A stretch of DNA of 64,000 nt from a virus (IMGVR_UViG_3300028603_000017:64001-128000); one strand, 5' to 3'. Numbered from the stretch's first letter, positions 1,102 through 58,123 are shown. Notes: generated by a model not told the origin, from the sequence alone. Numbers and translations are program-made.

Positions 1102-1142
1102 ACATACACTCCAGGCAGATTAAACCTGCCTGGAGTGTATGT
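1102..1142. terminator. CATA...TATG palindrome 1 (17-bp stem, 7-nt loop), convergent junction
   Basis: ACATACACTCCAGGCAG-attaaac-CTGCCTGGAGTGTATGT between gene ends 1093 (+) and 1146 (-). Hairpin seen directly; terminator role inferred. Confidence 0.7.
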
Positions 1143-1145
1143 TGC

Positions 1146-2303
1146 TTAATTTTTATCTAACATCTTTATCAGAACATTAAAATTTCTTTCTTCATATTTA
1201 ACAGTATGATGATCTTCTACCCAAGAGCCTATATTGAAAAAGAAATCATCTATTCCATAAAGATGTTCTGGAACACCTTCACTAAACTGAAAAATTACAT
1301 CATCAATGTCGTCTATGAGATTATCATAGATGTCTGTAGACTTTTTCATGATTGCAGAACCACGTCTTGGATCTACAGTATCGATCATATCCTTAATACT
1401 AATAAGGACATTGACTATATCGATATTTACCTCAATGTGTTTAATTAGGTTTTGTTTAGAAACAGTTAAATCTTTAGTATTTAATGGACTCTCTACATCA
1501 AACCACACCTCTAAGATGGGTGAACAATTGAAATCTAAATATTGAGTTAAATTCTTAGTTAGTTTACCATAATCTGTTTCACCCACTAGTGATGAATCAA
1601 AAGTAGTAATACTAAATACTTTATTTCTATCTACTAGTTTGTACGATTCAATAGAGTTATTGTTGTTTTTTTCTTTAGTTTTAGTTAGATTTGGTTGTGA
1701 TAATAAATTTTCTTTAATTCTAAAAAAACTTAGAATAAGATCTGCTGTTTGTTTATGTAATTTTTTATCAGCTTCTTTTTCTTCAACAAAATCAGTATTA
1801 ATTATCTTCTGACCTAATTTATGAACAGAATCTAAAAATTTAGGAACTTTCTTGTAATATTGTTCTATTGATTTTAAAGAATTAAGTAAGATATTCAAAC
1901 TATAGGTATAATCTTTAATATCAGTCAAATGATCAGGTATTGTTAATTTTAATTCTAAATCATTTTCTTTAATTTGTTTGACTTGTTGTAGAGTCTCAGA
2001 GAATTCCTTACTAAGACTTTTTAAAGTATCGTATTGATTTTCATGCTCTTTAATTTGTTTGATTTGTTCTAGAGTCTCAGAGAATTCCTTACTATGATTA
2101 TTTGTTTTTGTAGGAACAGACTCAACATGTTCTTTACTTGTATTCTTTGACTTAAACATATCAAAGAAACCTTCTTTGGATATTCCGTGCTTTATTTTAC
2201 GCTTTATTTTATTTATTCGCTTCTGATCAATGCGAATATCTGCAGCTTCGTTATTTATTTCTTCTAACGCTTGCGCTAGCGTGATTCTGGTACGAGTATT
2301 CAT
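1146..2303 (-). CDS. Putative internal head protein (385 aa)
   Basis: Basic N-terminus with ALE and SKE motifs followed by GFFDMF, a pattern typical of processed phiKZ-like head proteins. Adjacent to another head paralog. Confidence 0.5.
   Translation of the reverse strand: MNTRTRITLAQALEEINNEAADIRIDQKRINKIKRKIKHGISKEGFFDMFKSKNTSKEHVESVPTKTNNHSKEFSETLEQIKQIKEHENQYDTLKSLSKEFSETLQQVKQIKENDLELKLTIPDHLTDIKDYTYSLNILLNSLKSIEQYYKKVPKFLDSVHKLGQKIINTDFVEEKEADKKLHKQTADLILSFFRIKENLLSQPNLTKTKEKNNNNSIESYKLVDRNKVFSITTFDSSLVGETDYGKLTKNLTQYLDFNCSPILEVWFDVESPLNTKDLTVSKQNLIKHIEVNIDIVNVLISIKDMIDTVDPRRGSAIMKKSTDIYDNLIDDIDDVIFQFSEGVPEHLYGIDDFFFNIGSWVEDHHTVKYEERNFNVLIKMLDKN
1966..2094. repeat. In-frame direct repeat, 48 bp x2 (81-bp period)
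   Basis: 1966-2013 and 2047-2094 differ at 2 positions and encode SKEFSETL(E/Q)Q(I/V)KQIKE twice. Confidence 0.9.
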
Positions 2304-2370
2304 TATTATCTCAAAAAAAAAATATTACTCTATCGTTTTTCGTTAGTGAAAAGTTAGATCATAGTATTCA

Positions 2371-2640
2371 ATGATCTCTATACTTCTCTACCATATCCAC
2401 AGTCTTACCCTTGGTGGAAATACATCAAATACACCGTCTTATAATAATAGAGTCTGTATTGGTGGTCCTAATGCTGCTGTGCAATCTTATATCCCTGCCT
2501 CATTAGCTACTTTAATGATAGGTACCAACAAGGTATCTACAGAAAACGAAATAAATAAACTATTTGGTTATTATGCTCATTATTATGCTTTAACTGATCT
2601 ATTACCTAGCTATCATCCTTATAAAACTACTTCACCATAA
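2371..2640 (+). CDS. Small hypothetical protein (89 aa)
   Basis: Fills an otherwise empty gap, and its stop lies 2 nt before a family palindrome, as for real genes here. No recognisable motif. Confidence 0.35.
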   Translation: MISILLYHIHSLTLGGNTSNTPSYNNRVCIGGPNAAVQSYIPASLATLMIGTNKVSTENEINKLFGYYAHYYALTDLLPSYHPYKTTSP

Positions 2641-2642
2641 CA

Positions 2643-2684
2643 CCATATATTCCTAGGTGGATTAATCCACCTAGGAATATATGG
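2643..2684. terminator. CATA...TATG palindrome 2 (perfect 42-bp palindrome)
   Basis: CCATATATTCCTAGGTGGATT|AATCCACCTAGGAATATATGG, just downstream of the helicase stop. Confidence 0.7.
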
Positions 2685-2694: not shown

Positions 2695-4227
2695 TTAAGT
2701 ACCTTCAAATTCCCAAAAAGGTGTTTCCTCTCCAGAGCCTACTGGTCCACCACCTACTTTCTTACAATGTGTAGGAGGACCGTCTAAATCATCATGAATA
2801 GCACCTACATCGTGAAATGGATATACCAAGTATTTATCCTCATCTTCAATTAAAGTAGGAATACGATGTTTACCACGTTGAATAGTTAAATAACTCTTTC
2901 TATTTTTCTTTTCAATATGAATATAGAGTTCTCCATCGACTTCTTGGTCAATGGTCTTACATTTGTCGTAATAGCCTTTGTTAGCAATTTCTTTAACAAA
3001 ATCACCTCTACCATCACGGATGAGTTGTTTAGCTTCTGTACTCAACTGATGAGGACTGATAAATAAGATTGAGCGAACACTCATAAAGTTACGAATTCTT
3101 CTCCACATGTCTCTAACATCAGATCCCATAGGACCAATACTACAGCCAGTTGTTGGTAGCATAGCTAGATAATCTACCATACATAAGTGAACTTCATATC
3201 CTTGAGATTCTAGCTCAGTAATATAGTTACAGATATGCATGTATGTCCATTGAGTTGGATCTACACGCATCATCTTAATATGGTAACCGTTTACCTCTAG
3301 CTTTTCTCTAACGTATTTAGCCATAGTAGCGATATCGCTACTACCTGTAATACATTTTTCTTTTGTTTCGTTTTCATATAAAGACTGATATAACCATTGT
3401 AGGTTTTTATCTAGATCGTCTTCAAATGAAATTCTAAGTAAAAGAGGCTTCTTACTAGGGTCTTTCATAATTGGTTTATTATACATCGCTATTTGCTTAA
3501 ATAGCGTCATACTAAAACCAGTTTTAAAGTTATGCTGTAAAGCACCAATAACCCAAGACTCTCCTCGCCTAAAACCACCTTGTAATAATTTATTTAGTCC
3601 TTGTAAGCCACTCTTTAGTACTGTTTTACCAGAACTATTTTCATTAACTACTTTAAATACTTCCTGAGTAGAATTCTCATCACCAATATCAATTGATGCT
3701 ACAACGCCTGGATCTTTTGATACAGCAGATACTTGGAATGGTTCTAGGTTAGCAATTAATTCTGATAGCCAAGACTGAACGTTCTTGATTTTATCTCTTT
3801 GGTGTCTGAAAGCATAAGCTGCTTTAGATAAAAATTCATCAACCTTCTGTTCTCGAAAATGGTTGTGAATAGATTTTTGAATATTGACAACAGTTCTTTT
3901 TATACTGGCTTCATTCATCTCAGGCTCAATAGCTGAGACAAAAGCTTCATTTAACTTATCATCATCGACGACATTGAGCTTTAATCTATTTAATAGCTCA
4001 GTCTTTTCATATTCATGATCAGGAGGATTCTCACACATCTCTAAAGCTGTTTGCTTTAGAGCGTAAAGAATATCTCTTTCTCTATTAAGAGATAAATTGA
4101 GTTCTGGTAGTCTGATATTTTCTAATACCGTGCGCACTAAGTCAGCACTATTAGAGTTTTTATTAGGAAGTAAACTCTCTCTATATAGGAGAGTAATTGA
4201 CTTTACTAGAAGAAGTTTGTTATCCAT
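2695..4227 (-). CDS. dnaB: DnaB-like (SF4) replicative helicase, phiKZ gp118-like
   Basis: LNKLLQGGFRRGE, variant Walker A GALQHNFKT, Walker B CMVDYL, SPHQLS and RGKHR motifs. Divergent from the capsid operon as in phiKZ-like phages. Confidence 0.9.
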   Translation of the reverse strand: MDNKLLLVKSITLLYRESLLPNKNSNSADLVRTVLENIRLPELNLSLNRERDILYALKQTALEMCENPPDHEYEKTELLNRLKLNVVDDDKLNEAFVSAIEPEMNEASIKRTVVNIQKSIHNHFREQKVDEFLSKAAYAFRHQRDKIKNVQSWLSELIANLEPFQVSAVSKDPGVVASIDIGDENSTQEVFKVVNENSSGKTVLKSGLQGLNKLLQGGFRRGESWVIGALQHNFKTGFSMTLFKQIAMYNKPIMKDPSKKPLLLRISFEDDLDKNLQWLYQSLYENETKEKCITGSSDIATMAKYVREKLEVNGYHIKMMRVDPTQWTYMHICNYITELESQGYEVHLCMVDYLAMLPTTGCSIGPMGSDVRDMWRRIRNFMSVRSILFISPHQLSTEAKQLIRDGRGDFVKEIANKGYYDKCKTIDQEVDGELYIHIEKKNRKSYLTIQRGKHRIPTLIEDEDKYLVYPFHDVGAIHDDLDGPPTHCKKVGGGPVGSGEETPFWEFEGT

Positions 4228-5041: not shown

Positions 5042-7210
5042 ATGCTATTTAACAAAAAGATTAAGGCCGGTGGTCGTCGCTTTGGCCTAGAGGGCATCGT
5101 TACCCAACTGCGTGAACAGCTGGCTGGTCGTGCTCCTGACCGCAAGCTCACCAAGATTGCTCTGGCTACCGAATCCGTTAGCGAGTCAGACGTTAACATG
5201 CTCAATACTGCTGTGGAAGACCTCAAGGTTATTCTGCAAGGTATTGCCAAGGAAAACGTGGAAGAGTTCGGCGCTACTGAAACCGGTGAAGCTGACGTTT
5301 CTGATGCACAGCTCGAAGCTGCTCAAGCTGCTGCTGTGATGGCTGAGGATCCTGAAGCTGTGATGGCTCAGCAATCTGTGGCTGTTCCTGCTAGCAACGA
5401 GTACAACGAAGTCGTGGCTGTTGAGTCTATCGTTTCTGACGGCTTTAGCAAGCGTGCTTTCGCTAAGGAAGCTTATGACGAATCCGCTAACCGCAACGCT
5501 GCTAGCTACTCGGTTGTTTACAACCTGAAGGCTGCTCGTCAAGATGAATTTGGTGAGGCTCTGTTCCCCACCGTGACCGTAACACCCGACAACGTCGGTT
5601 TTGCTGTCTCTATTCGTCTGGTTCAAGTGTATGATGACTTCAAACGTTCCATCACTGGCAACATCGACAAGTACAACATGGTTAACATCGTGCGTGGTTT
5701 CGCCGATCCTACCGTGCTGAAAAACGAACTGACCCGTGCTGTGCCTGTGTATCGCACTGAGTCCGCTCAACACTTCTACAGTGAAGTGCCTGCCGCTGCT
5801 GTGGTGGTTGAAGACGGTGGTGAGAGTGTAAATACTGCTCCTCTAAAGTTTAACAACAACTTCTCGCTGATTGCTCTGTCGCAAACTGACGCTCTGCTGG
5901 CTAACGGTACGATGGATCCTTCTGACTCTATCGATCCGGGTGGTCTGCGTCTGCGTAACGTGTACGCCAAGATTGGTGATAACGTACTTAAGTTCGTCAC
6001 TAAGGATCTGCCCCTGGCAGTATTCCATGCGGCTCCTCAAGGCGTCCATCGCTTGATGAACCTGAACTTCACCACCGATACCATCATGATCAACAAGGAC
6101 ACCACCCGTTACAACGGTGCTGCTCTGGATGGTGCGCTGGCTGGTGTGGTCTCTGGTGATTATATCGTACGCGTAGCTATCAGCGTGACTGGTAACATTG
6201 ATGTCCAAAAGGGTGATACTCATCTGATGGCTAGCGGCATCCGTGTGGTTCAAGTGCAAGACGAAGACGGTGTGGTTGTTGACCATACTGTTGCTGGTGC
6301 TGCTAAGACCCTGGCTGACGCTATCGAAGGTGGTACTCTGGGTGGTTTTGACCTGATTGCATATCGCGCTAACGCTAACCGTCGTCAGCGTGGTCAGCTG
6401 CTGGACATCCAGTACTTCAACCAACTGTACACCGTGCCTTTCCGTTCACCCATTACTGCTCTGAAGCCTGTCAACTCTGACTCTTCTAGCGAAGCTGGTG
6501 ATCTGGCTGGTCTGATCAGTGCTACCCAAATCCGTACCTCTAACGCTGCTGTGACCCAGCTGCTCGATACTGCGGATACCCTCAAGCGCTTTGTTGATAG
6601 TCGTGAAACCACCCGTGGTCCTGCTATCCTGGGCGTGGCTCGTTACCTGGTCAAGGCTGCTTACCTGGAAGACACGGTGGACGCTGTGGCTGATCTGGAC
6701 TCTCTGACCGCTACCCAACGCGCTCAAGACTTGCAAGCTCTGCTGGTCAACAAAGTGCGTGACATGGCTTTCAGCCTGTGGCGTGATTCCGAGTACCAAG
6801 CTATGGCTACTGTGATGAAGGGTGGCGCTGCTGATACGCCTACCGTAATTATCGCTACCGATCCTGTACTGGCTCGCTACCTGCAAATCGATGGTGATCT
6901 GCGCACTGCTGGTGCTAAGTTTGAAGTTCGTCTGGTGTCCACTCTGGACAACCGTATGAAGGGCAAGATCGCCGTTACCTTCGGTGACTTTACCAACACC
7001 AACGAACCCAATCCTCTGCACTTCGGTAACATGGCGTGGAAGCCTGAGCTGACCCTGAATCTGCCTATCTCTCGTGGTGGTCAGATCTCCAAGGAACTGA
7101 CTGTTCAGCCTGCGTTCCTGCACATCACCAACCTGCCTATCCTGGGTATGATTGAGGTGAGCAACGTGAGCGAAGTCATTGCTTCTAAGGTCGACGTTAA
7201 CGTTGGTTAA
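5042..7210 (+). CDS. Major capsid protein precursor, phiKZ gp120-like
   Basis: 722 aa with an AAGGA RBS. Acidic propeptide with repeated A/S/G-x-E sites ending at AKE|AYDE (residue 143). Family motifs ARQDEFGEALFPTV, NANRRQRGQLLD and LTVQPAFLHITNLP. Strong high-expression codon bias. Confidence 0.92.
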   Translation: MLFNKKIKAGGRRFGLEGIVTQLREQLAGRAPDRKLTKIALATESVSESDVNMLNTAVEDLKVILQGIAKENVEEFGATETGEADVSDAQLEAAQAAAVMAEDPEAVMAQQSVAVPASNEYNEVVAVESIVSDGFSKRAFAKEAYDESANRNAASYSVVYNLKAARQDEFGEALFPTVTVTPDNVGFAVSIRLVQVYDDFKRSITGNIDKYNMVNIVRGFADPTVLKNELTRAVPVYRTESAQHFYSEVPAAAVVVEDGGESVNTAPLKFNNNFSLIALSQTDALLANGTMDPSDSIDPGGLRLRNVYAKIGDNVLKFVTKDLPLAVFHAAPQGVHRLMNLNFTTDTIMINKDTTRYNGAALDGALAGVVSGDYIVRVAISVTGNIDVQKGDTHLMASGIRVVQVQDEDGVVVDHTVAGAAKTLADAIEGGTLGGFDLIAYRANANRRQRGQLLDIQYFNQLYTVPFRSPITALKPVNSDSSSEAGDLAGLISATQIRTSNAAVTQLLDTADTLKRFVDSRETTRGPAILGVARYLVKAAYLEDTVDAVADLDSLTATQRAQDLQALLVNKVRDMAFSLWRDSEYQAMATVMKGGAADTPTVIIATDPVLARYLQIDGDLRTAGAKFEVRLVSTLDNRMKGKIAVTFGDFTNTNEPNPLHFGNMAWKPELTLNLPISRGGQISKELTVQPAFLHITNLPILGMIEVSNVSEVIASKVDVNVG

Positions 7211-7243: not shown

Positions 7244-7279
7244 CATACTGCCAGGAGCTTATAGCTCCTGGCAGTTATG
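7244..7279. terminator. CATA...TATG palindrome 3, downstream of the capsid gene
   Basis: CATA-CTGCCAGGAGCT-tat-AGCTCCTGGCAG-t-TATG. Confidence 0.7.
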
Positions 7280-10343: not shown

Positions 10344-12854
10344 TTGGATATGTTCCAAAACCAGAACTTAATGATGGGTGGTACACAAATGATGCAGCAG
10401 CCCCTGCAACAAGTGTATAATGATTGGCCTACAAACCAATTGATCATCCATCCTCAAAACTTTAGCTTTAATGCTCAGAACATACCTGTGCCTAACTTTC
10501 CGGTATGGATGCCTGAGGTACAGAACGCTATTCCCACAATTGCAGCAGCAGTAGCTAATGAAATCTGTAGGACAGCTACTCAAAACACCATTAGAGTTTA
10601 TACCTACAACCAGCTATCGGCTAACAACTTCAACAATCCAGACTTTGCACAAACAGTTCAGTTGGCTGTAGACTTGGTCAGTTTAGCTACCAAAAAACGT
10701 GGTGGGTTTGCAGCATTTAACAAAGATGCTGCAGATTGCGTCAAAGACGCTATTGTGATTAAAGGAAGCATGAACGTTGCCAATAGTCAAGCGCTAGCAA
10801 GTACAGTGCCTCCACCCACAATGCGTGATGTCAATAACACATTGCTAATGTTTAAAAATGACGCTGCTCAAATCGAACAGCTCAGAAACGCAGCAATGAA
10901 TCAACCACAAGCGCAGGTCAGAGGAAACTTTAACAATCCTTTGGGTAATCCTACTATGATGCAAAACCAAAATAACGGTTTTGTACCACAGCAGTTTAAC
11001 CAGCCTGTACAGCAACAACAGCCTCAATATTGGCAACCACAACAAAACCAATTCCAACCCACTCAGTTTGGAAATCAAACACAAAACAATAACCCATCAG
11101 GCTATAGACCAGTTTCACCTGTTAGTCCTAACAGCATGAATGTGGTTGCTAGAGACTTTTTCTACCAAGAATTTGTTCCTATTCAACCTGCAAATCAGTT
11201 TGCAGCACCTAGCAATCAAAATCAAAACGCCTATACACCTGTTACCAACTTTGAGCCAGTACCAGAACCTGTAGCTGCTGTGCCAGCTCCACAACCTGTT
11301 CAAGTAACCCGAACAATTCCTCCTGCTCCGCCTCCCATGAATTGGAAAGCAGGAATTATTGAATCGTTGGATAGCACTCCTGAGCCAGGTAAGGCTCAAC
11401 ACCAAGCATTTAAAATGCCTGAGATTCATCAACCGACTCAACAGTCTAATGATGAATTGAGTGCTGCGCTTGAGCAAGCTACAGCCGAGCTGCAAAGCCC
11501 TGTATTGGATTTTGCTCAACCAGGCATTCCAGTCAAAGTCATTGAAACCAATGAAGAGCTGCAATGGTGGCCATCAGAGCTTCAGCCATTTCCTATCTAT
11601 TGGGAAAGTCTGAAAGAGAAAATCATTTTGAAGAAAGTATCCTACAAAGGAAAAATCTTTGTTGTTCAACAAAAGACTAACTTAACAGAGGAAGAAATGG
11701 ACGAAATGAGGCATGCGATTGGTCCGAAGACCATTATGGACAAGGCAGTACTGGATCAACAGCGTGAACGTCTAATCGAAGTAGTGGGTCTGGAAGAAGG
11801 CCGTACTGCTCGAACTGGTCCTAAGGTAGAAATGATTGATGGTGCAACTACTATTACACACTCAGCCAATCCTACTACCCAAGATGAATTAGAAGGCTTT
11901 ATGGAATCTAAAGGGCAAGTAATGCCTAAAGATCCAACAATGTCTGCTTTCCCATCAGTATTGAAACTAGCTGGTTTGGATAAAGATCCTACCCAGTCAC
12001 TGGATGCTGATGGAGATCCTGCTTGGTTTGATGCAGGATTTTTGGCTGATTCCATTTACAGCACCAAAGTGCGACACCTGACCATGGCCAACAGCCATAA
12101 ACGCATTCGCAGGGAATACCATATTGTTCCCAAGGTGTTTGTCTCCAGAAAACCTCTGGTTGATATCTACAGTGAATGGACTGAAAAGAAAGAATTCTCT
12201 TTCCTGGCAGATAAACTGCGTAAAACCGTCACTGGCGATAAGCTCGCTACCACAGATTTTGTGGAGTTTGCTGCTGAATTCGATAGGTACCTGACCAGTA
12301 TCATCAATGAATTCATGTCATCCACACTGCATGTAGCGACAACGATCGACAGCTTCTGTGAAGATATCGATACTCTGATGAATGGTTACCTCAGGGAAAA
12401 GTACGGACCCTTCATCCACGATGCTTTGGTTGGATACCAGCAAGAGTTTTATGATCGATACCTCACCAGGATCGAAGATGAGGAGATGCTCAAAACCATT
12501 ACGGAAATGCATGTAAAAGTCGATGATGTTGAAATGAATATCGACACCAGAGACACTCATGTGTTGGTTCTGGAAAACAATTACACCATTAGCTCTGTGC
12601 GCGTTCATTCTAGCGAACTAAAACTCGTAGATACCAAAAGCGGTGATACGACACCTACTCCAATTGGTGATGATCGTCCTGAGCTCAAAGCTTTTTGTGA
12701 AAAACTCTTTGAGAGCAAGATCATTGGTGAATTTAGCTGGACCAAACATTTGTTGATCACCAGCGATGGCCAGGTCTATTCTGTGGAAAAGCCTTCGGTT
12801 GGGTACATCAAGTACATGATCCGAAAGCTCAACCCTATGTGGCTCATGCCGTAA
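10344..12854 (+). CDS. Large hypothetical protein with Q/N/P-rich low-complexity region
   Basis: 836-aa ORF (TTG, or ATG at 10350, after AAGGA). Helical N-domain, long Q/N/P-rich linker, globular C-domain. Confidence 0.7.
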   Translation: MDMFQNQNLMMGGTQMMQQPLQQVYNDWPTNQLIIHPQNFSFNAQNIPVPNFPVWMPEVQNAIPTIAAAVANEICRTATQNTIRVYTYNQLSANNFNNPDFAQTVQLAVDLVSLATKKRGGFAAFNKDAADCVKDAIVIKGSMNVANSQALASTVPPPTMRDVNNTLLMFKNDAAQIEQLRNAAMNQPQAQVRGNFNNPLGNPTMMQNQNNGFVPQQFNQPVQQQQPQYWQPQQNQFQPTQFGNQTQNNNPSGYRPVSPVSPNSMNVVARDFFYQEFVPIQPANQFAAPSNQNQNAYTPVTNFEPVPEPVAAVPAPQPVQVTRTIPPAPPPMNWKAGIIESLDSTPEPGKAQHQAFKMPEIHQPTQQSNDELSAALEQATAELQSPVLDFAQPGIPVKVIETNEELQWWPSELQPFPIYWESLKEKIILKKVSYKGKIFVVQQKTNLTEEEMDEMRHAIGPKTIMDKAVLDQQRERLIEVVGLEEGRTARTGPKVEMIDGATTITHSANPTTQDELEGFMESKGQVMPKDPTMSAFPSVLKLAGLDKDPTQSLDADGDPAWFDAGFLADSIYSTKVRHLTMANSHKRIRREYHIVPKVFVSRKPLVDIYSEWTEKKEFSFLADKLRKTVTGDKLATTDFVEFAAEFDRYLTSIINEFMSSTLHVATTIDSFCEDIDTLMNGYLREKYGPFIHDALVGYQQEFYDRYLTRIEDEEMLKTITEMHVKVDDVEMNIDTRDTHVLVLENNYTISSVRVHSSELKLVDTKSGDTTPTPIGDDRPELKAFCEKLFESKIIGEFSWTKHLLITSDGQVYSVEKPSVGYIKYMIRKLNPMWLMP

Positions 12855-12862: not shown

Positions 12863-12918
12863 CATAGCTCCTAGTGACCTCATCAGGTCACTAGGAGTAC
12901 TATGTCTTTTTTTTTTTT
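12863..12918. terminator. CATA...TATG palindrome 4 with T-tract, convergent junction
   Basis: CATAG-CTCCTAGTGACCT-catc-AGGTCACTAGGAG-ta-CTATG followed by a long T run. Confidence 0.8.
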
Positions 12919-12932: not shown

Positions 12933-14126
12933 TTAACTAGTTCCCTCAGGTTCTAACTTCTTAGCTTCTTCTTGTTCTTCAGGCTCTACTTCTTCTTTTT
13001 CTACTTCTTCAGCATCAAGCTCTGTAGCTTCTACAACAGCAGGTGTTAAAGTGCATTCAGCTGTGATCAAAGCTTCTACATCCATATCGCCCTTGAATTT
13101 AAACTTGACTTCTGGTGGAGGTTCCTCTTTACCTTGCATTTCACCAGTATTGTCCGCTACCCATTCAGCAGCAATCTTAAACTTAATCTTGTCAACTTTG
13201 TATTCAAACTTAGGTGTTTGAAAGTAAACCTTGGCTTCTTCTTCTGTACCTGTACCCATACGGAATTCTTTATCCGTATAGATAGTCCAGTTATCATTCT
13301 TGGTTTCTTGCTCTTTGGTTTCTGTATTGATAGACTCTTTAGCTTCTAAAGTGTATTTATCACACTTTTCATTATAGCGCTCAGTTTTGACATCAATAGA
13401 AGTCTTTGCATTCAGACAATATTTATCGGTAGTCATATTGATTTCATCATGAGAGAATATATTAATAACTCTCTTGTTCATCTCAATATAAGTATCGTCT
13501 TTATTGTGTAGCTTAATGAATCTCTCAGCTGAATCTAAAAAGATATAGTTGTGGTCATCGTCTTGAATAACGATTCTACCGTCTTTGGTATTGATTTGAA
13601 TATCGTAGACAAAAGGCTCTTCATCTGATTTAGAAGTGTGTAGATGGACTACCTTTTTATGAGTAGATACTTCAAACCAGTAAGTAGATTCAGGAGTATC
13701 TTCTACGTTTTCTTCTCTGTTATCAGAAAAAGACCAAATAGCGGTTTCTAATCGACGGATATGTTTATACTGCATCATATCGCACCACCAATACTCATCT
13801 ACATCACCAAACTTGTAAATGAGTACTTGCTCACCACGCCTGACATCAGGTGGTGTAATACGATTGGTTTGAGTTAAAGGCAGCCACTTGGCTCTAATAG
13901 TGGCAGTAGTATCTATCTTAACTTCAAATTGATTTCCCATAATACCTTTACCAGAAGCTTTATATTCTTCTGTGTGGTCTAGGATTTCACCATCAATGAA
14001 GTTAAAGTATTCAATAGGTAAGATCTCTACGAAGTGTTCTGAGAGTTCTTTATTGGTAGCAACAACACCAATTGAGAAGAACCTCAGTTGTGATACAGTA
14101 TTGAAAGCGTCAAATAGTTTTTCCAC
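12933..14126 (-). CDS. Baseplate central spike / injection needle (GpV/gp5-like, phiKZ gp164-like)
   Basis: OB-fold-type N-terminus (IRAKWLP...RITPPDVRRGEQVLIY) followed by short beta-strand repeats (TDKYCLNAKTSIDVK / CDKYTLEAKESINTE). Divergent from SbcC as in phiKZ. Confidence 0.75.
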   Translation of the reverse strand: MEKLFDAFNTVSQLRFFSIGVVATNKELSEHFVEILPIEYFNFIDGEILDHTEEYKASGKGIMGNQFEVKIDTTATIRAKWLPLTQTNRITPPDVRRGEQVLIYKFGDVDEYWWCDMMQYKHIRRLETAIWSFSDNREENVEDTPESTYWFEVSTHKKVVHLHTSKSDEEPFVYDIQINTKDGRIVIQDDDHNYIFLDSAERFIKLHNKDDTYIEMNKRVINIFSHDEINMTTDKYCLNAKTSIDVKTERYNEKCDKYTLEAKESINTETKEQETKNDNWTIYTDKEFRMGTGTEEEAKVYFQTPKFEYKVDKIKFKIAAEWVADNTGEMQGKEEPPPEVKFKFKGDMDVEALITAECTLTPAVVEATELDAEEVEKEEVEPEEQEEAKKLEPEGTS

Positions 14127-16696: not shown

Positions 16697-16741
16697 CATA
16701 GGTCTAGATGCTAGGGAACTCCCTAGCATCTAGACTGTATG
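16697..16741. terminator. CATA...TATG palindrome 5, convergent junction
   Basis: CATA-g-GTCTAGATGCTAGGGA-ac-TCCCTAGCATCTAGAC-tg-TATG. Confidence 0.7.
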
Positions 16742-41677: not shown

Positions 41678-42310
41678 TTACGTATTTTGGGCTAAGTTCT
41701 TTTGAACAATGAAATCTTCTAGAGCTCTTATCTTTAGTCTAGCTGAAGCTAACTCGTCTTTTAGCTGAGCCAGTTGCATATAAGTTGTATTTTCTATTTC
41801 TATCTTACCTTGTCTCATTGCTTTAATAGCTTCATGATCAGCTGTTTTTACCATAGCAGACTTTGATAGAGACACTACTCTAATATCAGGTCTAATACCT
41901 AAATTAGAGTAAATAACGTCAGATAGAATTTCATTAAGAATAGATAAATCAAACGATTCTTCTATAGGACCCATATCTATAGCATAAGCCATACGTCTGT
42001 AGGGTACACCACCACTATCAGGATAAGCATCTAATTGAGATGACGGAACATAAAGCCAATCAGCTTTTTCGCTATAGAGCCCTACAATAGAGATATCGTT
42101 TTTCTTATCTTCTTCTAAAGTAACTGAAGTCAATCCATAAGGCGTATAGTAAGTAGCCAATACGTCTACGCCAGAGCCAATGAGCTCAGATATCTTTCTT
42201 ATGGATTTACATTGGTAAATAGCTTGTGTATTTACCATCGTTGATATTGGGGTTTTAAATTTATAAACCCCAATAGCATTTAATGCTGGTAAAAATTCAC
42301 TCATATTCAA
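41678..42310 (-). CDS. Conserved hypothetical protein (210 aa) with C-terminal coiled coil
   Basis: Intact ORF coupled by a 4-nt overlap to the upstream structural gene. Confidence 0.65.
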   Translation of the reverse strand: MNMSEFLPALNAIGVYKFKTPISTMVNTQAIYQCKSIRKISELIGSGVDVLATYYTPYGLTSVTLEEDKKNDISIVGLYSEKADWLYVPSSQLDAYPDSGGVPYRRMAYAIDMGPIEESFDLSILNEILSDVIYSNLGIRPDIRVVSLSKSAMVKTADHEAIKAMRQGKIEIENTTYMQLAQLKDELASARLKIRALEDFIVQKNLAQNT

Positions 42311-45663: not shown

Positions 45664-46134
45664 ATGAACACCGAACATCCATCAAAACAGCGCAAACCTA
45701 AGATGGTAGGTAAATTGCTCACTAAGGTACTATTTAAGCTACCTAATAGAACAAAGCGTTTGATATTTGTAAGTTCATTTTTAGCTCATATCCAAAATTG
45801 TAACTCAACAGACAAAGCAATTATCTCTAAACTAAACACATTACTGCATCTGAGCAGTGATGATAAAGCACTCGTGTGGCCTATGCAGCTACATGAAAAG
45901 ATTTGGGGTGATATTAAAATAGAGAAGATTTTACATGATAAAGGTATCGAAATATCTGATATCGACAAAATAGCTCATGTACAATTCATGTCTCGTAAAG
46001 TACGCCTGTTAAGCGAAGATATCGTTAAAGCCATGCCTGAATGGCTAAAATACGATAGCAATACTCGCATGAGAGGGGATATAATGAAACTATTCAATAA
46101 TCTTGGAGATATCCTGCAACCTACCGCAGCCTAA
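45664..46134 (+). CDS. Hypothetical basic protein (156 aa)
   Basis: AAGGAG RBS; intact ORF ending before palindrome 11. Confidence 0.7.
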   Translation: MNTEHPSKQRKPKMVGKLLTKVLFKLPNRTKRLIFVSSFLAHIQNCNSTDKAIISKLNTLLHLSSDDKALVWPMQLHEKIWGDIKIEKILHDKGIEISDIDKIAHVQFMSRKVRLLSEDIVKAMPEWLKYDSNTRMRGDIMKLFNNLGDILQPTAA

Positions 46135-46156: not shown

Positions 46157-46195
46157 CATAGCTCCAGTACTGGCTAGCCAGTACTGGAGTGTATG
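46157..46195. terminator. CATA...TATG palindrome 11, convergent junction
   Basis: CATA-g-CTCCAGTACTGGCT|AGCCAGTACTGGAG-tg-TATG. Confidence 0.7.
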
Positions 46196-46202: not shown

Positions 46203-46754
46203 TTACTTTTTAGCTTTAACTTCTTCTAGCTTTGCTTTGATAGCTTCAAGACCAGTGTTGAGTTTACTTGAGAATTTCTTAAGATCTTCACCTAAGTTCT
46301 CTAGTGTAGGATAATGCTTAGAGTCTTTGTTGATAGAGTGTTTCTTACAAATAGCTTCTACACCAATCTTTACGAAGTCAGCATAGGCTTCTTGAGCCAA
46401 CTTTGCGTCATGAGCTTTTTCTACAGCCGCTTGCAAAGCTTCAAGAGCAGCAATAGATTCTAGACCTGAAGAGATCTCTTGTTCGTAAAATTGCTTCTCA
46501 GCATCACCTTCGTCTTGATTGTCAACAATTACGCCAGCACCTACTACATCAACACTACCAGTTTCTTGTTCAACATCACCAACAATTTTAGAATCGATAA
46601 TGGTGTCGGTAGCAGGAGCTGTCTCATCAACAACGGTTGTACTAGTCTCTACAGGTGCTTCGCTAGTAGCGACGGTAGACTCTTCGTTAGGTTTTACTTC
46701 TTCTTCGATTTGCTCTAAAGAAGCTTGGATATTAAAACGTTTAGCGAAACTCAT
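46203..46754 (-). CDS. Acidic internal-head-family protein made mostly of the propeptide-like region (183 aa)
   Basis: Many A/S/G-x-E motifs (SLE, GLE, ALE, AVE, AQE, GVE, GLE); gap-free similarity to the N-terminal region of the gene at 2..1093. Confidence 0.55.
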   Translation of the reverse strand: MSFAKRFNIQASLEQIEEEVKPNEESTVATSEAPVETSTTVVDETAPATDTIIDSKIVGDVEQETGSVDVVGAGVIVDNQDEGDAEKQFYEQEISSGLESIAALEALQAAVEKAHDAKLAQEAYADFVKIGVEAICKKHSINKDSKHYPTLENLGEDLKKFSSKLNTGLEAIKAKLEEVKAKK

Positions 46755-50494: not shown

Positions 50495-51286
50495 ATGAAT
50501 GAGCAGATAAAAGGAATTTATATTGATTTAGACTCTATCTACGATACGCGACTTGGTTGTATTGCTGAGGTAGATCCTGAGTTGGTAAAGCTTGCTTTAG
50601 ATCAAGGATATCTAGATAGAAGAGCTGATAACTTTTCTTTTCTAAAGAATGAGACTTTTAAAGAGCTTTATAATAGTCGAAATATTGATACATTAAGAGT
50701 ATCTCCTTACACACAAATCTTTGACATACTTAATGCAGCTTGCAATAAGATGCTAAAGAATGCTATAGACTCTCCTGATCTTACAGGCGTAAAGCTCTAC
50801 ATCAATATTCATCCTTATAAATTATCGGATGAAGAAGCTAGTGATTTACTGGACTTGGTGGTGACCAGAACAAACAAACTAGTTCAGGTACAAATTGTTG
50901 ATTATTCTCAAGAAGAGCTGACATTCAGTCTTTGTAGAAAGTACTTTGATATTTTATTCATGTATGACTACAATAGCTTCTTAGAATATAACGTAGTTAA
51001 GAATGAGCACAAAAAAAGCACTCTTTACGATAGAATGTTAATTGCTCCTGAGATTTACTATAGGGAATTTTCTAAAACAGAGCTAGACGCTATGTATAGA
51101 AAAAATCCACTGATTAGTGGAAAGTCTATAGCTGACATTATGAAAATGACTGCATCTCCTGTAGTCATTTTAGAATTAATTGAAGCTAAACATTTCTCTG
51201 TAGACACTGAGCTTTATAAAAACGACTTTTATAAATCAGCTGAAAATCCTTCTGAGCAAACAGAATCTGACGTAAATGAGGCATAG
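50495..51286 (+). CDS. Conserved protein with HAD-like N-terminal motif (263 aa)
   Basis: IYIDLDSIYDTRLG resembles HAD motif I (hhhDxD-x-x-x-D); INIHPY motif. Confidence 0.5.
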   Translation: MNEQIKGIYIDLDSIYDTRLGCIAEVDPELVKLALDQGYLDRRADNFSFLKNETFKELYNSRNIDTLRVSPYTQIFDILNAACNKMLKNAIDSPDLTGVKLYINIHPYKLSDEEASDLLDLVVTRTNKLVQVQIVDYSQEELTFSLCRKYFDILFMYDYNSFLEYNVVKNEHKKSTLYDRMLIAPEIYYREFSKTELDAMYRKNPLISGKSIADIMKMTASPVVILELIEAKHFSVDTELYKNDFYKSAENPSEQTESDVNEA

Positions 51287-51321
51287 CTGCCTAGCCAGCT
51301 CAATGCTGGCTAGGCAGTATG
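51282..51321. terminator. CATA...TATG palindrome 12, convergent junction
   Basis: CATA-g-CTGCCTAGCCAGC-tcaat-GCTGGCTAGGCAG-TATG; the left CATAG supplies the TAG stop of the upstream gene. Confidence 0.7.
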
Positions 51322-51326: not shown

Positions 51327-51758
51327 TTAGTCTTGCGTTGGTTTTGTAAAATGTTGTTTAGCAAAATCTTCGTAGGTAGTTGTAGAAGTACCTTGTATTA
51401 ATTCGTCAGGACTAACGGATGGCAGCTCAAAGCCATTAGGTATCTCAGGAATAGCTACATCATCACTAGGCGCATGCTGAACTTCAGAAACCTTTAGCGA
51501 TTTAAGTAAGTGCGCTACTACACCGGCAGCACCAGCAATATTAGAATTGGCTTTCTCATCGGCCTTAATTCTCTTATTAGTTAAAGCTGCTCTGTCCATA
51601 TCAGAGAGCACACCAGCTAATGTGGATATTTCCTTAATATCTTTAGGGACTTCCCCTCTTTCCATCATTGAGCTAACAATCTTCTTTCTAATACCGTGGG
51701 TATAGGATAAGATTTGGTCTTCGTTGATGGGCTCATTGTTTTGGACTTCTTGTTCCAT
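51327..51758 (-). CDS. Hypothetical protein (143 aa)
   Basis: Intact helical ORF ending at palindrome 12. Confidence 0.65.
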   Translation of the reverse strand: MEQEVQNNEPINEDQILSYTHGIRKKIVSSMMERGEVPKDIKEISTLAGVLSDMDRAALTNKRIKADEKANSNIAGAAGVVAHLLKSLKVSEVQHAPSDDVAIPEIPNGFELPSVSPDELIQGTSTTTYEDFAKQHFTKPTQD

Positions 51759-53466: not shown

Positions 53467-54594
53467 ATGTCAAAGTACAATAGCGATAAAAATTCTGGTA
53501 AGAAGCATCAAAACCGTGAGCAAGGCCAAGGCTATTTTCAACAGCGTCGCCCCTTTAATCCTGCTTTCTCCGATAAGCTAAAAGGATTTAAGCCTAACAA
53601 TCACGTCAACTCGCTACCACGTCTGACAGACTATGATGGAGATGGGATTGATCACATCAATATCTATCATCGTCCTGAGACACCCCTAGGAAGGATTTTA
53701 TCTCCCTTTAACGAATCTCTTCCTTTCATTGATCGGTTCTTCGGTAAGTTTAAGTCTCGCCAAGGTCTGTATAACTATCTGCTCTCAGCCAATGGTGATG
53801 AAGCATTTAGGACCATGAACGCGAACTATATGCGTATTTACGCTGCTGAGCGTGCAAATATGCGTCCTTACTATCCTAACCTGAAATACTTCATGGCTAC
53901 TTCCCTGTGGAAGCAGATCAAGAATCAGGAGGAAATTCTAGAGCTGATCAAAGACAACCAATTACCTTTTGATGCTTACTATACTCACAATTACGTCGAA
54001 GATGGCAAAGTCTCTAAGATTAAGGCTCGACCAAATAGTGTAGGTGTTTGGCTAGTATCTATTGTCAATGTGATCTCGGATGCTGTTAAGAAAGGTGTTG
54101 AGCCTAACTTTGATAGATTCATTGATCGCGCTGAAGAGCTTAAGAAACTAGAAGACAAGATTGTCTCTGACTATGTAGCGCCTGCTGAGCCTGAGCAAAA
54201 ACAAGCACCGAAGGCTAAAAAGCAAAAGTTCAAGAAGGATAAGACAGTGCAAGAGCTGAAAGTTGACGACAAAGTCGCTGAAGCAATCATCAATGTTACG
54301 GACGCTAATGCGCTAACTAATACTGAAGGCTTGGTATCTGGCGTAACGAGTCCTGAAGAAGTAGCTCAGATTGCTAATGAAGCTATTACGGAAACCATTG
54401 TTGAGGATACGCTTAATGCTGTTAATGCTGTAGCACAAACTGACTCTACTGTGGCTGTCGATGAATCTTCTGATAACACTCAAGCTGTTCAAGAACAAGC
54501 TGGAACTGAGGCAACTCAAGCTCCAACTGAACAAAAACCTGATGCTGTTATCGTTGAAGATATTAACAAATCGGTGTTTTTGCCGAATGTATAA
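53467..54594 (+). CDS. NADAR-like domain protein with basic N-terminus and acidic disordered tail
   Basis: DGIDHINIY...LGRILSPF...PF...GKFKSRQGLY resembles the NADAR-fold start (LSNF...PF...G-x-x-F-x-S-x-E). Confidence 0.45.
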   Translation: MSKYNSDKNSGKKHQNREQGQGYFQQRRPFNPAFSDKLKGFKPNNHVNSLPRLTDYDGDGIDHINIYHRPETPLGRILSPFNESLPFIDRFFGKFKSRQGLYNYLLSANGDEAFRTMNANYMRIYAAERANMRPYYPNLKYFMATSLWKQIKNQEEILELIKDNQLPFDAYYTHNYVEDGKVSKIKARPNSVGVWLVSIVNVISDAVKKGVEPNFDRFIDRAEELKKLEDKIVSDYVAPAEPEQKQAPKAKKQKFKKDKTVQELKVDDKVAEAIINVTDANALTNTEGLVSGVTSPEEVAQIANEAITETIVEDTLNAVNAVAQTDSTVAVDESSDNTQAVQEQAGTEATQAPTEQKPDAVIVEDINKSVFLPNV

Positions 54595-54627: not shown

Positions 54628-54687
54628 CATACTAGGATACTGGGGGTCATCCCCCAGTATCCTAGCTATGTCCATATTTTTTTTTTT
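54628..54687. terminator. CATA...TATG palindrome 13 with T-tract
   Basis: CATA-CTAGGATACTGGGGG-tcat-CCCCCAGTATCCTAG-c-TATG, then a T run from 54677. Confidence 0.8.
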
Positions 54688-54702: not shown

Positions 54703-55893
54703 ATGAGTGGAAAGCTTATTGAAACTACTTTCCAAACAGGACCAGACGATGATCTAGCTGCTGTTGATGTATATGAAGGCGGCGGTGGTGTAGAAAACAC
54801 CTATGACGATAAGCGAGCTCAAGCTATTGACAATATGGATATTGTTGGTGCTAGTGGCTCTAACAGTACCCAAGAAAGCTTTGCACCAGCTGGTGAAACT
54901 GGTTTTGACAATAGTGCTTTTGCTTCTCCTGAAGCTTTTGCTCGTATGGCAGGGGATACCAGTGCGTTAGTAGGTTATTTAAATAATCTATCTAATGCAG
55001 CTAAAGCATTATTTAATTTACGCCCTAGCCAATCTAGCGTTAGTGTTGGCTCTAATTCAGTAAAGCCTGTTGCTAATATAAAAGATATAAAAGCTGTTGT
55101 TAATATTATTAATAACTTATCCAGTAATAATTTTGATAATAAAGTAATTGATAAAGGCGCTAGCCAACAACTTATTACTAGTGCAGCAGTAACGGCTAGT
55201 AATAATGGTATTCATGGTGCTTATCAAGCACTGGTTAAGAATCCTAATTTAGACAGAACAGTATTAACAGATAGTGCTATTGATGCTATTGAGCAAACTG
55301 TTGCTGTTGGTAATTTAGGGATAGCTTTGGATGTTAGTCAGACAGAATTAATGGCTACCGTCATAGAAAAATCTCCTGCTATTATACAAGCTATTTTATC
55401 AACACCTACTTTAGTTGATATCAGTGAAAAAGATTCTGGTAAAGTATTTGGTACATTTTTAGACTCTTTTAATGCAGCTAATCCTAATTGGAATAAAACA
55501 ACCATCAATAATAATGAAATTACTGATTTAAAAGAATACAGTCTATCTAGGACAATGAGAGATTTGCTGTACAGTCAAGTCCTGAGTTTGCCCTTAACAG
55601 TTTATAAAGGAACCGATAGAACGCCTAACTCATCTATTGATTATGAATTAGATGATTTAACAAACGTTGATATTGTTCAAGCTATATATGGTAGTGATGT
55701 TTCTATAGAAACCATTAGTGAAATGAGTGCGCTGTGGAATAGTCCTGAGCATCAAAATAATATCAATAATCACAAATCCAGTAGCGATATGTATATTGGG
55801 TCTTTATTTAATAAACTAAGTGTGCAAGAAAGTATTGATAAACATTTTAGTTATATCAATGCCAAAACAAATTCGTTGGTATATAGAGCATAG
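54703..55893 (+). CDS. Putative virion structural protein (396 aa)
   Basis: AAGGA RBS; N-terminal FQTGPDDDLAAVDVY; S/N/A-rich helical protein next to tail genes. Confidence 0.5.
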   Translation: MSGKLIETTFQTGPDDDLAAVDVYEGGGGVENTYDDKRAQAIDNMDIVGASGSNSTQESFAPAGETGFDNSAFASPEAFARMAGDTSALVGYLNNLSNAAKALFNLRPSQSSVSVGSNSVKPVANIKDIKAVVNIINNLSSNNFDNKVIDKGASQQLITSAAVTASNNGIHGAYQALVKNPNLDRTVLTDSAIDAIEQTVAVGNLGIALDVSQTELMATVIEKSPAIIQAILSTPTLVDISEKDSGKVFGTFLDSFNAANPNWNKTTINNNEITDLKEYSLSRTMRDLLYSQVLSLPLTVYKGTDRTPNSSIDYELDDLTNVDIVQAIYGSDVSIETISEMSALWNSPEHQNNINNHKSSSDMYIGSLFNKLSVQESIDKHFSYINAKTNSLVYRA

Positions 55894-55896
55894 AGT

Positions 55897-55935
55897 CATA
55901 GCTCCAGGTAGGACTAGTCCTACCTGGAGCGTATG
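55897..55935. terminator. CATA...TATG palindrome 14, convergent junction
   Basis: CATA-GCTCCAGGTAGGACT|AGTCCTACCTGGAGC-g-TATG. Confidence 0.7.
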
Positions 55936-55938
55936 CTG

Positions 55939-58053
55939 TTAATAAATAGGAATATCTCCAAACAAACCTGATCTTAGGTTTGTAGTACCATCTCTTTGAG
56001 CACCTTTAAATAAAATATCTAGGATACCAACTTGGTCTCTGATAAACTGAGCTACTCTGGCTTTAGAAAGCATTTGTTCCATTTGACGAGTCTTTTGAGC
56101 CGAACGTAATCTAAACTTGGCTGATGTATACATTTGGTCATATAGACCAACAGAGCCTAAAATATTGATATAGTCTTGATAAATACTTTCATCATCAAAT
56201 AAGTCTGTTGGTACAATAGCGCTTCCAATAGCTTCTAAGAAAGTCTTATTAGCAATAGGCATAGCCATAATAGGAGACAGATCAGCTACTGAGAAAGTAA
56301 CATCTATTCTCATAGCATCGCCATGCTTATTAAAGCCTAAATTAGAAGTACCTCTATCAATAGATAAAGAATCTATAATGCCTAAACGAGTTTGCTGCCT
56401 ACCTCTATCGTAAAGCTGTACAATAAAAGGTGATGTATAAGACTGCTTACCCGTCATCATGGGTAAAGCTCCCGCCAACAACATACACAGCGGAATATAA
56501 ATATTGGTCATTTGGGAAATAGGATTCCCATACGGACTCATCAAGTTGATCGTATAATTGGCTTTAGGTAAATTAGCAATAGAATTTTCCCAGTTCTTAG
56601 GAATAATCGTAAAAGCTTTACCAGCCAAAGCCATTAGACCACCAATATTTAAACTATCTAAAGCTCCTTCAACCATACCTTTGACGGCTCCAATTGTGCC
56701 TTGGAGCATGTCACCAACAACATTACCACCAATCATATTACCGCCAGCTGTAGCAAATGATAGTGCTTTATTGGATGCTACAGTACTGTTAAACTTATTA
56801 GCGAGATCATTATCTACAGTGTTGTTGGTAAATGATTCTTGTACTGGACCTGTAGAGTTTACTCTGAATGTAGCAAACGCTGCACCATCGTCGTACTCAC
56901 TGGCTAAATAATCGCCCCAACCACTAGGCTCTGGTGCTTTAGTGCCGTCAGGATTTACTTTTAAACTTCTTTCGAAATCAACAGATTTTTCTTTATCAGT
57001 CCAATTATTGGTAGGAGCAGTTAGCCACTTATTTAAAAGATTAGCTAACGTTCCTCTATCACCAGGATTGGTATTGGCTTTATCTAAACTGAATTTAGCT
57101 ACAAAACCACTGACACTCTGAGTTCCATCACTGATAGTTCCATCAGTAGATGCATCAAACTCTTCGTTGAGTCTTTTGTCTAAAGCATTTTTCATTCTCT
57201 GGCCGCGACCAGATAGTGAGACTACATCAATACCGCCAGTATCAGAAAATATAGTCGGCATCATGAGAGCCATATCGTCCATAGCAGCTTGATCTATCTT
57301 ATAGTTATTTCCCATGAATTGCGAGCTACTGCTTTCTAATTCATCAGGAAACAAACCACGCCTAATAGCTATTTGGTTAACCATATTGTTAACAGCTAAC
57401 CAATATGTTGGCATTGTTGGTTTAAAATAATAAAAGCTACTGGTAGGCTTATTAAAAGCAAAACGTAAAGCATTACCAACAAGACTACCTAATACCAAAG
57501 GCCATGTAACCAGATAGGTTACCATACCTAATAGGCTACCTAAAGATCTAAAAAAACCTTGATCTAACCTACCTGTTCTCGCCATCGTTGCAGCACGATT
57601 GTCAAAGAACCCCGTAAAGAAAGTCAACATAGAGTTAAACTGTGGTACACCAAAACGCATATGGATAACCTGAGCAGTATCGTCTAATGCTTCGCTATAA
57701 TAGTGTCCCATACCCGTTTGGTGGCTATTAGCAGATACACTTAAATCTGTTCTTTGTGCTAGAAACCCTTTAACAGGAAAATCAGCATATTTTGTAAACT
57801 GTGGTCTAGGATTAATCACATAGTGTCCACCAGCGCTGGAGTCTTGAAACTTAAAATGTGCTGATGTAAAAGTTCTATTAATCTTTTCTTCTTCTGTTAC
57901 AGCTCCAGATAAAATCATAAAGGATTGTTTAATCCAATTCGAATCTCTTTCTTTATCTAAGGCTTCAGCTTCAAACTGTCTTTTATTGCTGATGAGTTTT
58001 TGTGCTTTTAATTCTGGAGACTCTTCAGTAGCATGCATGTATGATGTAGTCAT
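55939..58053 (-). CDS. Tail/baseplate hub-associated virion protein (phiKZ gp182-like)
   Basis: INPRPQFTKYAD, GMGHYYSEALDD, MRFGVPQFNS, SPYGNPIS and GIIDSLSIDRG motifs. Directly downstream of the tape measure gene. Confidence 0.75.
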   Translation of the reverse strand: MTTSYMHATEESPELKAQKLISNKRQFEAEALDKERDSNWIKQSFMILSGAVTEEEKINRTFTSAHFKFQDSSAGGHYVINPRPQFTKYADFPVKGFLAQRTDLSVSANSHQTGMGHYYSEALDDTAQVIHMRFGVPQFNSMLTFFTGFFDNRAATMARTGRLDQGFFRSLGSLLGMVTYLVTWPLVLGSLVGNALRFAFNKPTSSFYYFKPTMPTYWLAVNNMVNQIAIRRGLFPDELESSSSQFMGNNYKIDQAAMDDMALMMPTIFSDTGGIDVVSLSGRGQRMKNALDKRLNEEFDASTDGTISDGTQSVSGFVAKFSLDKANTNPGDRGTLANLLNKWLTAPTNNWTDKEKSVDFERSLKVNPDGTKAPEPSGWGDYLASEYDDGAAFATFRVNSTGPVQESFTNNTVDNDLANKFNSTVASNKALSFATAGGNMIGGNVVGDMLQGTIGAVKGMVEGALDSLNIGGLMALAGKAFTIIPKNWENSIANLPKANYTINLMSPYGNPISQMTNIYIPLCMLLAGALPMMTGKQSYTSPFIVQLYDRGRQQTRLGIIDSLSIDRGTSNLGFNKHGDAMRIDVTFSVADLSPIMAMPIANKTFLEAIGSAIVPTDLFDDESIYQDYINILGSVGLYDQMYTSAKFRLRSAQKTRQMEQMLSKARVAQFIRDQVGILDILFKGAQRDGTTNLRSGLFGDIPIY

Positions 58054-58078
58054 ACGGCTCCTTATTTCAGTTGTCCGT

Positions 58079-58123
58079 GATAGTAGCAGACTATAGTGGT
58101 TTAACCACTATAGTCTGCCTATG
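58079..58123. terminator. Palindrome 15, left end degenerate
   Basis: GATAG-ta-GCAGACTATAGTGGTT-t-AACCACTATAGTCTGC-CTATG, downstream of the tape measure stop. Confidence 0.65.

Follow-up and report, generated by a model that had tools for sequence, protein, structure and literature searches.

Palindromes with outward TATG half-sites at gene ends of an uncultured phiKZ-like jumbo phage are probable two-way transcription terminators

What is the function of the 15 palindromes dispersed through a 64,000-nucleotide stretch of the virus record IMGVR_UViG_3300028603_000017? This stretch, called the window below, covers bases 64001-128000 of a 261,198-bp record of an uncultured phage, the genome of which is 95%-complete. 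In most copies a perfect inner stem is flanked by CATA on one side and by TATG on the other. A preliminary description of the window left several functions side by side, among them a bidirectional terminator for phage RNA polymerases, an RNA processing or export tag, and a DNA hairpin site for recombination or genome organisation. We consider it very probable that the elements are two-way, U-tract-poor transcription terminators of the phiKZ-like jumbo-phage type. This reading combines the anatomy, position, statistics and identity with the elements of relatives, all observed here, with RNA 3' ends that were mapped in a relative on TATG-Y-Y/G (Y, pyrimidine; the slash marks the RNA end).

Hairpins and half-sites at gene ends

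All 15 elements of the preliminary description were recovered (Table 1), and a systematic hairpin scan of the window found no further family members. Both CATA and TATG ends are present in 13 of the 15, as had been claimed; at 35126 the + strand shows neither, and at 58079 TATG is kept but GATA stands in place of CATA. The distance from the stem to the nearest TATG is 0-3 nt in 14 elements and 5 nt in the fifteenth. From CATA to TATG the elements span 36-45 bp, with nine at 39-40 bp, and in 11 of the 13 a 1-2 nt bulge or small asymmetric loop lies by the end motif, both in agreement with the first account; 1103 and 2644 pair throughout. The inner stems had been described as perfect over 12-17 bp. 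The pairing is indeed perfect, but the length is 12-21 bp because the stems are longer in the two fully paired cases, and the calculated stability of the hairpins is -23 to -32 kcal/mol.

The elements were then compared with our own crude gene calls, which are the basis of every junction count in this study. Each of the nine convergent junctions of the window has one element and the other six elements lie at tandem junctions, exactly as first described. In the window the elements lie -5 to 33 nt from the stop codon of the incoming gene, which bears out the proposed placement just past stop codons. To extend the count to the whole genome, we searched for perfect stems of at least 10 bp with a loop of up to 8 nt and used dinucleotide shuffles as the control. 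There were 114 such hairpins (3.6 ± 2.3 in the shuffles), and 73 with stems of at least 12 bp (0.1 in the shuffles). In 47 of the 114, CATA and TATG were both within a few nt of the stem, for which the chance is ~0.2%. Hairpins of at least 10 bp were found at 21/21 convergent and 0/21 divergent junctions of the whole genome, and at 52/210 tandem junctions (++, 47/186; --, 5/24). Their presence at all convergent junctions and absence from divergent ones points to a transcription-ending signal and counts against a promoter or a recombination site.

The preliminary description also held that the elements are fixed in length and that their inner stems differ. Genome-wide, the span stays in a narrow range (35-46 bp, mode 39) but is not strictly fixed, and the stems vary but not freely: 12 elements have common CTCCAGGTAG/CTACCTGGAG arms, and 22/69 begin with CTCC. 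In addition, two of the 39-mers in the window are each repeated exactly at a distant locus (Table 1). The repeated 39-mers and the 12 copies with the same arms suggest copying or homogenisation among terminators, a pattern that phiKZ also shows, with arms of its own.

Genome-wide, 119 TATG half-sites lie beside hairpins of at least 9 bp, and their logo is TATG-Y-Y-G-Y. In those that face an incoming gene, TATG is followed by Y (74%), Y (93%), G (65%) and Y (83%), and the sequence beyond is rich in T. We ruled out pairing between the outer CRR (R, purine) and YYG flanks, which form fewer Watson-Crick pairs than permuted partners (50 vs 58.3). Since there is no covariation, CRR and YYG are conserved as sequence on each strand and not as pairs. 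Where CATA is missing, rescue of pairing did not exceed that obtained with permuted flanks in the four genomes compared.

The bulge was examined in the same way. On each side a spacer of 0-2 nt separates the stem from TATG, and the lengths on the two sides are independent of each other, so that the "bulge" has no fixed side. The spacer difference ranges from -5 to +3; when the tandem-junction elements are read in the sense direction, 15 differences are positive and 14 are negative. The helix is continuous in 6/47 elements, and 8.4 are expected from independent spacing. The possibility of an oriented or required bulge was ruled out by this variable side and size and by the chance-level frequency. 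With flanks that do not covary and a bulge that varies, the element is best described as a palindrome bearing two outward half-sites of the form N(0-2)-TATG-YYG-Y, each independent of the other, and is not built like attC or REP.

The preliminary description had compared the elements with integron attC sites and REP elements, which are likewise imperfect palindromes, conserved at the ends and variable in the middle, that recur around a genome. Elements of that kind would act as DNA: folded into cruciforms or hairpins, they would serve recombination, transposition or the organisation of the genome. The arms pair perfectly by Watson-Crick rules without a sense-strand G.U bias, identical 39-mers stand at distant loci and the same arms recur in twelve copies, all of which would fit a DNA-level role. 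However, the link to gene 3' ends is strict and follows the direction of transcription, with no element at divergent junctions, as expected for transcription and not for recombination. The ends are unlike the R and L boxes of attC, the bulge is unfixed, and in relatives the mapped RNA 3' ends fall at the motif found here (see below). In addition, no tyrosine recombinase (PF00589) was matched in the 261-kb, 95%-complete genome, whereas the control genomes all matched, and no RAYT Y1 transposase (PF01797) was matched there either. We therefore regard a DNA-level function as highly improbable, and the comparison with attC and REP is not upheld.

A long T run follows only 12863 and 54628, as first noted. 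No element has a canonical U-tract (7-9 nt directly past the stem); the T runs of these two start after TATGTC or TATGTCCATA. A consensus terminator scan of the first 20 kb detected only 1103 (both strands) and 12863 among the six elements there, and Rfam gave no family matches in the window. RNAalifold predicted no pairs on a MAFFT alignment of the 15 elements because the loops fall in different alignment columns. Bacterial bidirectional intrinsic terminators, with their A-tract and U-tract, resemble the elements in that a single palindrome is shared by two convergent genes, base pairing between the 5' flank and the 3' tail can extend the stem, and the RNA ends 6-9 nt past the main stem. They differ in the tail, which here is UAUGYY instead of a U run (a T run is seen in 2/15 only, beyond the tail) and is a conserved word common to the whole phage family.

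The tail in related phages and the RNA end

Judged from its proteins, the source genome is that of an uncultured phiKZ-like, nucleus-forming jumbo phage (chimallivirus). Protein comparison identified a phiKZ-type major head protein gene (5042..7210, +) and virion proteins, and the closest cultured relatives are FLC9 (Burkholderia) and RP12 (Ralstonia), with a head protein identity of only ~42%. A homologue of gp123, the beta-like subunit of the phiKZ nonvirion RNA polymerase (nvRNAP), lies at 8708-10318 (+) and is 30-50% identical to its counterparts in five relatives. The window shows no excess of sigma-70-like promoters (64 vs 68.7 in shuffles), which is consistent with transcription by phage polymerases; phiKZ, of the same genome type, is a jumbo phage with its own multisubunit RNA polymerases. 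No nucleotide match to the genome was found in the phage collection. A search for close relatives, by protein and arm pattern in viral contigs and by arm pattern in metagenome contigs, returned one contig, the 20-kb viral contig IMGVR_UViG_3300014206_000091. Its 7.7-kb stretch is 99.8% identical to genome 150879-158575 without indels, indicating that a near-identical strain exists in another sample, and at this identity the single contig is too close for use in covariation analysis.

We next compared the hairpins with the DNA of six other phages (phiKZ, 201phi2-1, RP12, FLC9, Eowyn and Bacillus phage AgentSmith). TATG is the commonest hairpin-adjacent 4-mer in this genome, FLC9, RP12 and Eowyn, and is tied for commonest in 201phi2-1. 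The counts exceed expectation in this genome (113 vs 10.6), FLC9 (6 vs 0.1), RP12 (20 vs 0.7), 201phi2-1 (4 vs 0.4) and Eowyn (13 vs 1.0). In the first 50 kb of phiKZ, TATG (9 vs 1.0 expected) is second to TTAT (10), which overlaps TTATG. Whole-genome logos of phiKZ, RP12 and Eowyn read TATG-Y-Y-G, as in this genome. Beside the hairpins of AgentSmith, TATG tails are absent. Two AgentSmith hairpins (24865-24908 and 25479-25524) are followed by a similar word, TTCACGCATTG and TTACACGTATTG; with only these two examples, this may be a tail motif of its own.

While the tail is kept, the stems change. Each genome has its own stem "dialect" (CTCCAGGTAGG here, GCCCTCCC in phiKZ and AGCGAGAGG in RP12), and the combination of other arms with the same tail in RP12, FLC9 and Eowyn indicates that the arm sequence is lineage-specific. 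The TATG-YYG tail persists across phages of 37-57% G+C with head proteins 31-43% identical.

The tail matches a motif already mapped from RNA. ONT-cappable-seq of phiKZ gave 133 termination regions, of which 61 have a hairpin followed by TTATKYYGT and six are bidirectional (PMC10914365). For 201phi2-1, 132 termination sites were reported, 15 of them bidirectional; its motif A resembles that of phiKZ, and its motif B makes the stem longer. In uninfected Pseudomonas chlororaphis, where transcription is host-driven, eight of the 201phi2-1 terminators are active as well (PMC11512511). When we placed the eight printed 201phi2-1 termination coordinates (PMC11512511) on the DNA, all fell between TATG (TATA in one) and the next G. 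In 7/8 the site is the second base past the motif, the TATA case included, and in 1/8 it is the first base past TATG. Since these sites lie just before G, the RNA ends at TATG-Y-Y/G, ~8 nt past the GC-rich stem, and by analogy the RNA of the phage studied here would end at TATG-YY.

In phiKZ, as here, gene ends carry a stable stem-loop with (T)TATG-YYG-T behind it, and some of the elements are bidirectional, between convergent genes. Its DNA also has the 5' partner CATAA and a one-base bulge, CATAA-GCCCTCCC-loop-GGGAGGGC-A-TTATG. The second motif of 201phi2-1, which lengthens the stem, corresponds to the CATA/TATG basal pairs here. The differences lie in the stems and in the kind of evidence. 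phiKZ stems are 8-11 bp with CCYCCCC, whereas those here are longer (median 14 bp, 51% G+C) with arms that are CTCCAGGTAGG-like or unrelated; the CCYCCCC and GGGRRGG arms of the phiKZ 30-mer (BCCYCCCC...GGGRRGG...TTATKYYGT) are not found in them. Immediately upstream of TATG, C or G predominates here, whereas phiKZ, RP12 and Eowyn have T. The stems of 201phi2-1 are short and GC-rich with tetraloops, and its elements were tested in vivo; the phiKZ motif was mapped from RNA, and the elements here were recognised in the DNA sequence. The stem-loop with (T)TATG-YYG, the placement at gene 3' ends and the phiKZ-like genome place the elements in the chimallivirus hairpin-plus-TATGYYG class. Junction placement and identity with the mapped phiKZ and 201phi2-1 motif thus give good support to one option of the preliminary description, a bidirectional terminator used by phage RNA polymerases (PMC10914365, PMC11512511). 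By the same token the novelty claimed for the family falls, as the motif has been published as the conserved terminator of both phages (PMC10914365, PMC11512511).

Termination could proceed as follows. An RNA polymerase would transcribe the palindrome, and a very stable RNA hairpin of 12-21 perfect pairs (-23 to -32 kcal/mol) would form. The polymerase would then stop 6-8 nt past the perfect stem, within the tail N(0-2)-UAUG-YY and just before the conserved G, so that this tail would substitute for the usual U-tract. The Y/G step may act like an elemental pause, and CAUA-UAUG pairing may help to pull the RNA from the hybrid. The opposite strand would present the same tail, read as CRR-CATA on the + strand, and with a tail on both strands convergent genes can share one element.

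Several points weigh against two-way terminators. The 3' ends proposed here are carried over from a relative the major head protein of which is ~31% identical. The eight 201phi2-1 terminators that work in uninfected P. chlororaphis include no tail mutant (PMC11512511). At tandem junctions the sense strand has no folding advantage over the antisense strand (mean difference -0.05 kcal/mol, p = 0.85) and is not richer in G.U pairs, so that the bias usually left by selection on RNA alone is not seen. These junctions retain the antisense half-site nearly as often as the sense one (37 vs 43 of 62), and one-way termination is therefore insufficient as an explanation. It is possible that two-way stopping is useful everywhere, since a 4-base promoter word allows stray antisense starts. 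Finally, 3' ends in ONT-cappable-seq, which cannot distinguish termination from trimming, can also come from trimming back to a stable hairpin.

The last point leads to another interpretation, in which the hairpins act mainly after transcription as 3'-end stabilisers that keep out exonucleases, as processing sites, or as tags that a phage RNA-binding protein would recognise for export from the phage nucleus, and the mapped ends are trimmed ends. The stems are far stronger than termination requires, and the genome-specific dialects (CTCCAGGTAGG, GCCCTCCC, AGCGAGAGG) could fit a sequence-specific binder. However, cloned 201phi2-1 elements lower the expression of a downstream reporter in vivo, unlike a pure stabiliser (PMC11512511), and the 3' ends fall at one step, Y/G, and not at a fixed distance from stems of variable length. 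We consider a mainly post-transcriptional function unlikely; a stabiliser role is compatible with termination but does not replace it.

TATG at promoters and in the polymerase pocket

The late promoter of phiKZ is also TATG, with the start at G (PMC4666361). The outward TATG words might accordingly be late promoters that the palindrome only insulates, in which case the downstream TATG at a tandem junction would start the next transcript. The sense TATG at tandem junctions is often 14-100 nt upstream of the next start codon, and two divergent junctions elsewhere in the genome have back-to-back CATA-N4-6-TATG without a hairpin. Against this, outward starts at the 21/21 convergent junctions that have elements would yield only antisense RNA, and the divergent junctions have none (0/21); only four antisense RNAs with a defined start are known in phiKZ (PMC10914365). 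Furthermore, YYG is specific to hairpin-linked TATG, with G at +3 in 65% compared with 11% for TATG at divergent junctions. A promoter function of the elements is thus very unlikely.

TATG followed by A or T is seen at the divergent junctions at window 4228-4361 and genome 8163-8233 and 40386-40446, which are candidate late promoters. Three divergent-junction TATG words lie upstream of a gene pair ending in the major head protein gene.

Termination could nevertheless make use of the promoter word. Cryo-electron microscopy showed single-stranded non-template TATG bound in a pocket under the gp123 beta-lobe (PMC12809450). The nvRNAP pocket that binds TATG at late promoters might also catch the TATG past a terminator hairpin; the captured polymerase would scrunch one or two bases and pause before G, and the hairpin would then release the RNA, so that one pocket would serve starts and stops. 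The mapped 201phi2-1 ends, one or two bases beyond TATG, would agree with this, as would the persistence of the tail word over the range of G+C and head-protein identity given above and its absence from the Bacillus relative.

Within genes, TATG is depleted on both strands in this genome, phiKZ, RP12 and Eowyn, with ratios of 0.63-0.89 to the codon-shuffled expectation (z -2.8 to -10.4). Of the control words TATC, GATA, AATG and CATT, none is depleted in all four genomes, and some are depleted in single genomes. The 7-mer TATGYYG is depleted within genes at z < -2 in none of the four. The depletion of TATG, which the shared-pocket proposal can claim in its favour, fits selection against stray promoter words.

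At the 14 TATG-pocket residues (PMC12809450), the gp123 homologue of the window is identical in six (S144, F151, K158, H331, S334 and Q466). The changes of H185 to Y and Y406 to F keep an aromatic or ring side chain, and the remaining pocket residues differ. The retention of F151, H331, S144, S334 and Q466 speaks for a shared pocket, but this partial conservation does not separate the motif-bearing phages from the motif-less one, and Y399, S402 and N398 are not conserved even in 201phi2-1. Other observations are difficult to reconcile with a shared pocket. Such terminators work in uninfected P. chlororaphis without the phage polymerase (PMC11512511), and the pocket is incomplete in the transcribing complex (PMC12809450). 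The divergent-junction TATG words, which are likely promoters, have A or T after them where the hairpin-linked ones have YYG, so that the two contexts differ. In the literature searched, we found no paper linking TATG with termination. Overall, we regard capture by the promoter pocket as doubtful, though less so than the alternatives above.

Reading of a short word during elongation has parallels elsewhere. Sigma-70 pauses at -10-like elements. In Bacillus subtilis, NusG reads non-template TTNTTT and causes pausing (PMC8060035). In both, a short non-template word is read by a polymerase-bound protein, and the resulting pause aids weak hairpin terminators; the reading of TATG during elongation would be similar by analogy only, and is put forward here as a proposal.

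The elements in their surroundings and their meaning

Table 1 Candidate terminator elements of the window, with neighbouring genes and half-sites (positions in the window)
Feature	Position	Strand	Junction and half-sites
Putative terminator palindrome	1103..1141	both	convergent (2..1093 + / 1146..2303 -); pairs throughout; half-sites TATG-TTG (+), TATG-TCG (-)
Putative terminator palindrome	2644..2683	both	convergent (2371..2640 + / 2695..4227 -); pairs throughout; TATG on both sides, without YYG
Putative terminator hairpin	7244..7279	both	tandem ++, 33 nt past major head protein gene 5042..7210 +; sense half-site TATG-TCG
Putative terminator palindrome	12863..12904	both	convergent (10344..12854 + / 12933..14126 -); + strand TATG-TC then T12
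Putative terminator palindrome	16697..16741	both	convergent (SbcC-like 14210..16696 + / 16756..19797 -); begins immediately past stop codon
Putative terminator hairpin	19845..19883	both	tandem --, between virion/tail-fibre-like genes that look paralogous; CTCCAGGTAG arms; sense (-) half-site TATG-TTG
Putative terminator hairpin	25260..25298	both	tandem --, past 1733-aa gene 25328..30529 -; identical 39-mer at genome 205569-205607
Putative terminator palindrome	31938..31977	both	convergent (30690..31934 + / 31989..32789 -); half-sites TATG-TCG, TATG-CCG
Degenerate member	35117..35161	-	tandem --; 17-bp perfect stem 35126-35161; sense (-) TTATT then TATG (35120-35117); no + strand TATG
Putative terminator palindrome	41634..41672	both	convergent (virion protein 38981..41629 + / 41678..42310 -); half-sites TATG-TCG, TATG-CTG
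Putative terminator palindrome	46157..46195	both	convergent (45664..46134 + / 46203..46754 -); half-sites TATG-CTG, TATG-TCG
Putative terminator palindrome	51282..51321	both	convergent (50495..51286 + / 51327..51758 -); CATA overlaps + gene stop codon
Putative terminator hairpin	54628..54670	both	tandem ++ (53467..54594, 54703..55893); TATG-TCC, ATA, then T11
Putative terminator palindrome	55897..55935	both	convergent (54703..55893 + / 55939..58053 -); identical 39-mer at genome 222300-222338
Putative terminator hairpin	58079..58123	both	tandem --, past 2191-aa gene (58132.. -); sense (-) variant TATC-ACG; antisense (+) TATG-CTG

Some of the neighbouring genes deserve mention. The SbcC-like gene at 14210-16696 (+) encodes a subunit of a palindrome-specific nuclease (phrog_77) in a genome with more than 70 perfect palindromes of at least 12 bp, and terminates directly at palindrome 16697. 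Three large genes on the - strand (16756-19797, 19896-22949 and 22960-25197) are adjacent, and a scan for phrog_2163 that covered the first two showed that they have this virion/tail-protein N-terminal region in common; they look like paralogous fibre cassettes. The putative terminator 19845 lies between the first two of the three, and 25260 bounds the run upstream; the second and third are 10 nt apart with no element between them.

With these elements, a terminator type known from the literature is extended to an uncultured and distant branch of the nucleus-forming jumbo phages, and in this respect the finding is largely ordinary. The elements give reliable transcription-unit ends for annotating such genomes, and are compact two-way insulators for synthetic biology. 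Of wider interest is why phage polymerases use a conserved word identical to the promoter word where bacteria use a U-tract. A common word for promoter and terminator may have a common reader, although host-driven termination and the poorly conserved pocket residues argue against a strict need for one. If true, a shared gp123 pocket would explain why TATG-YYG stands in place of the U-tract throughout the family.

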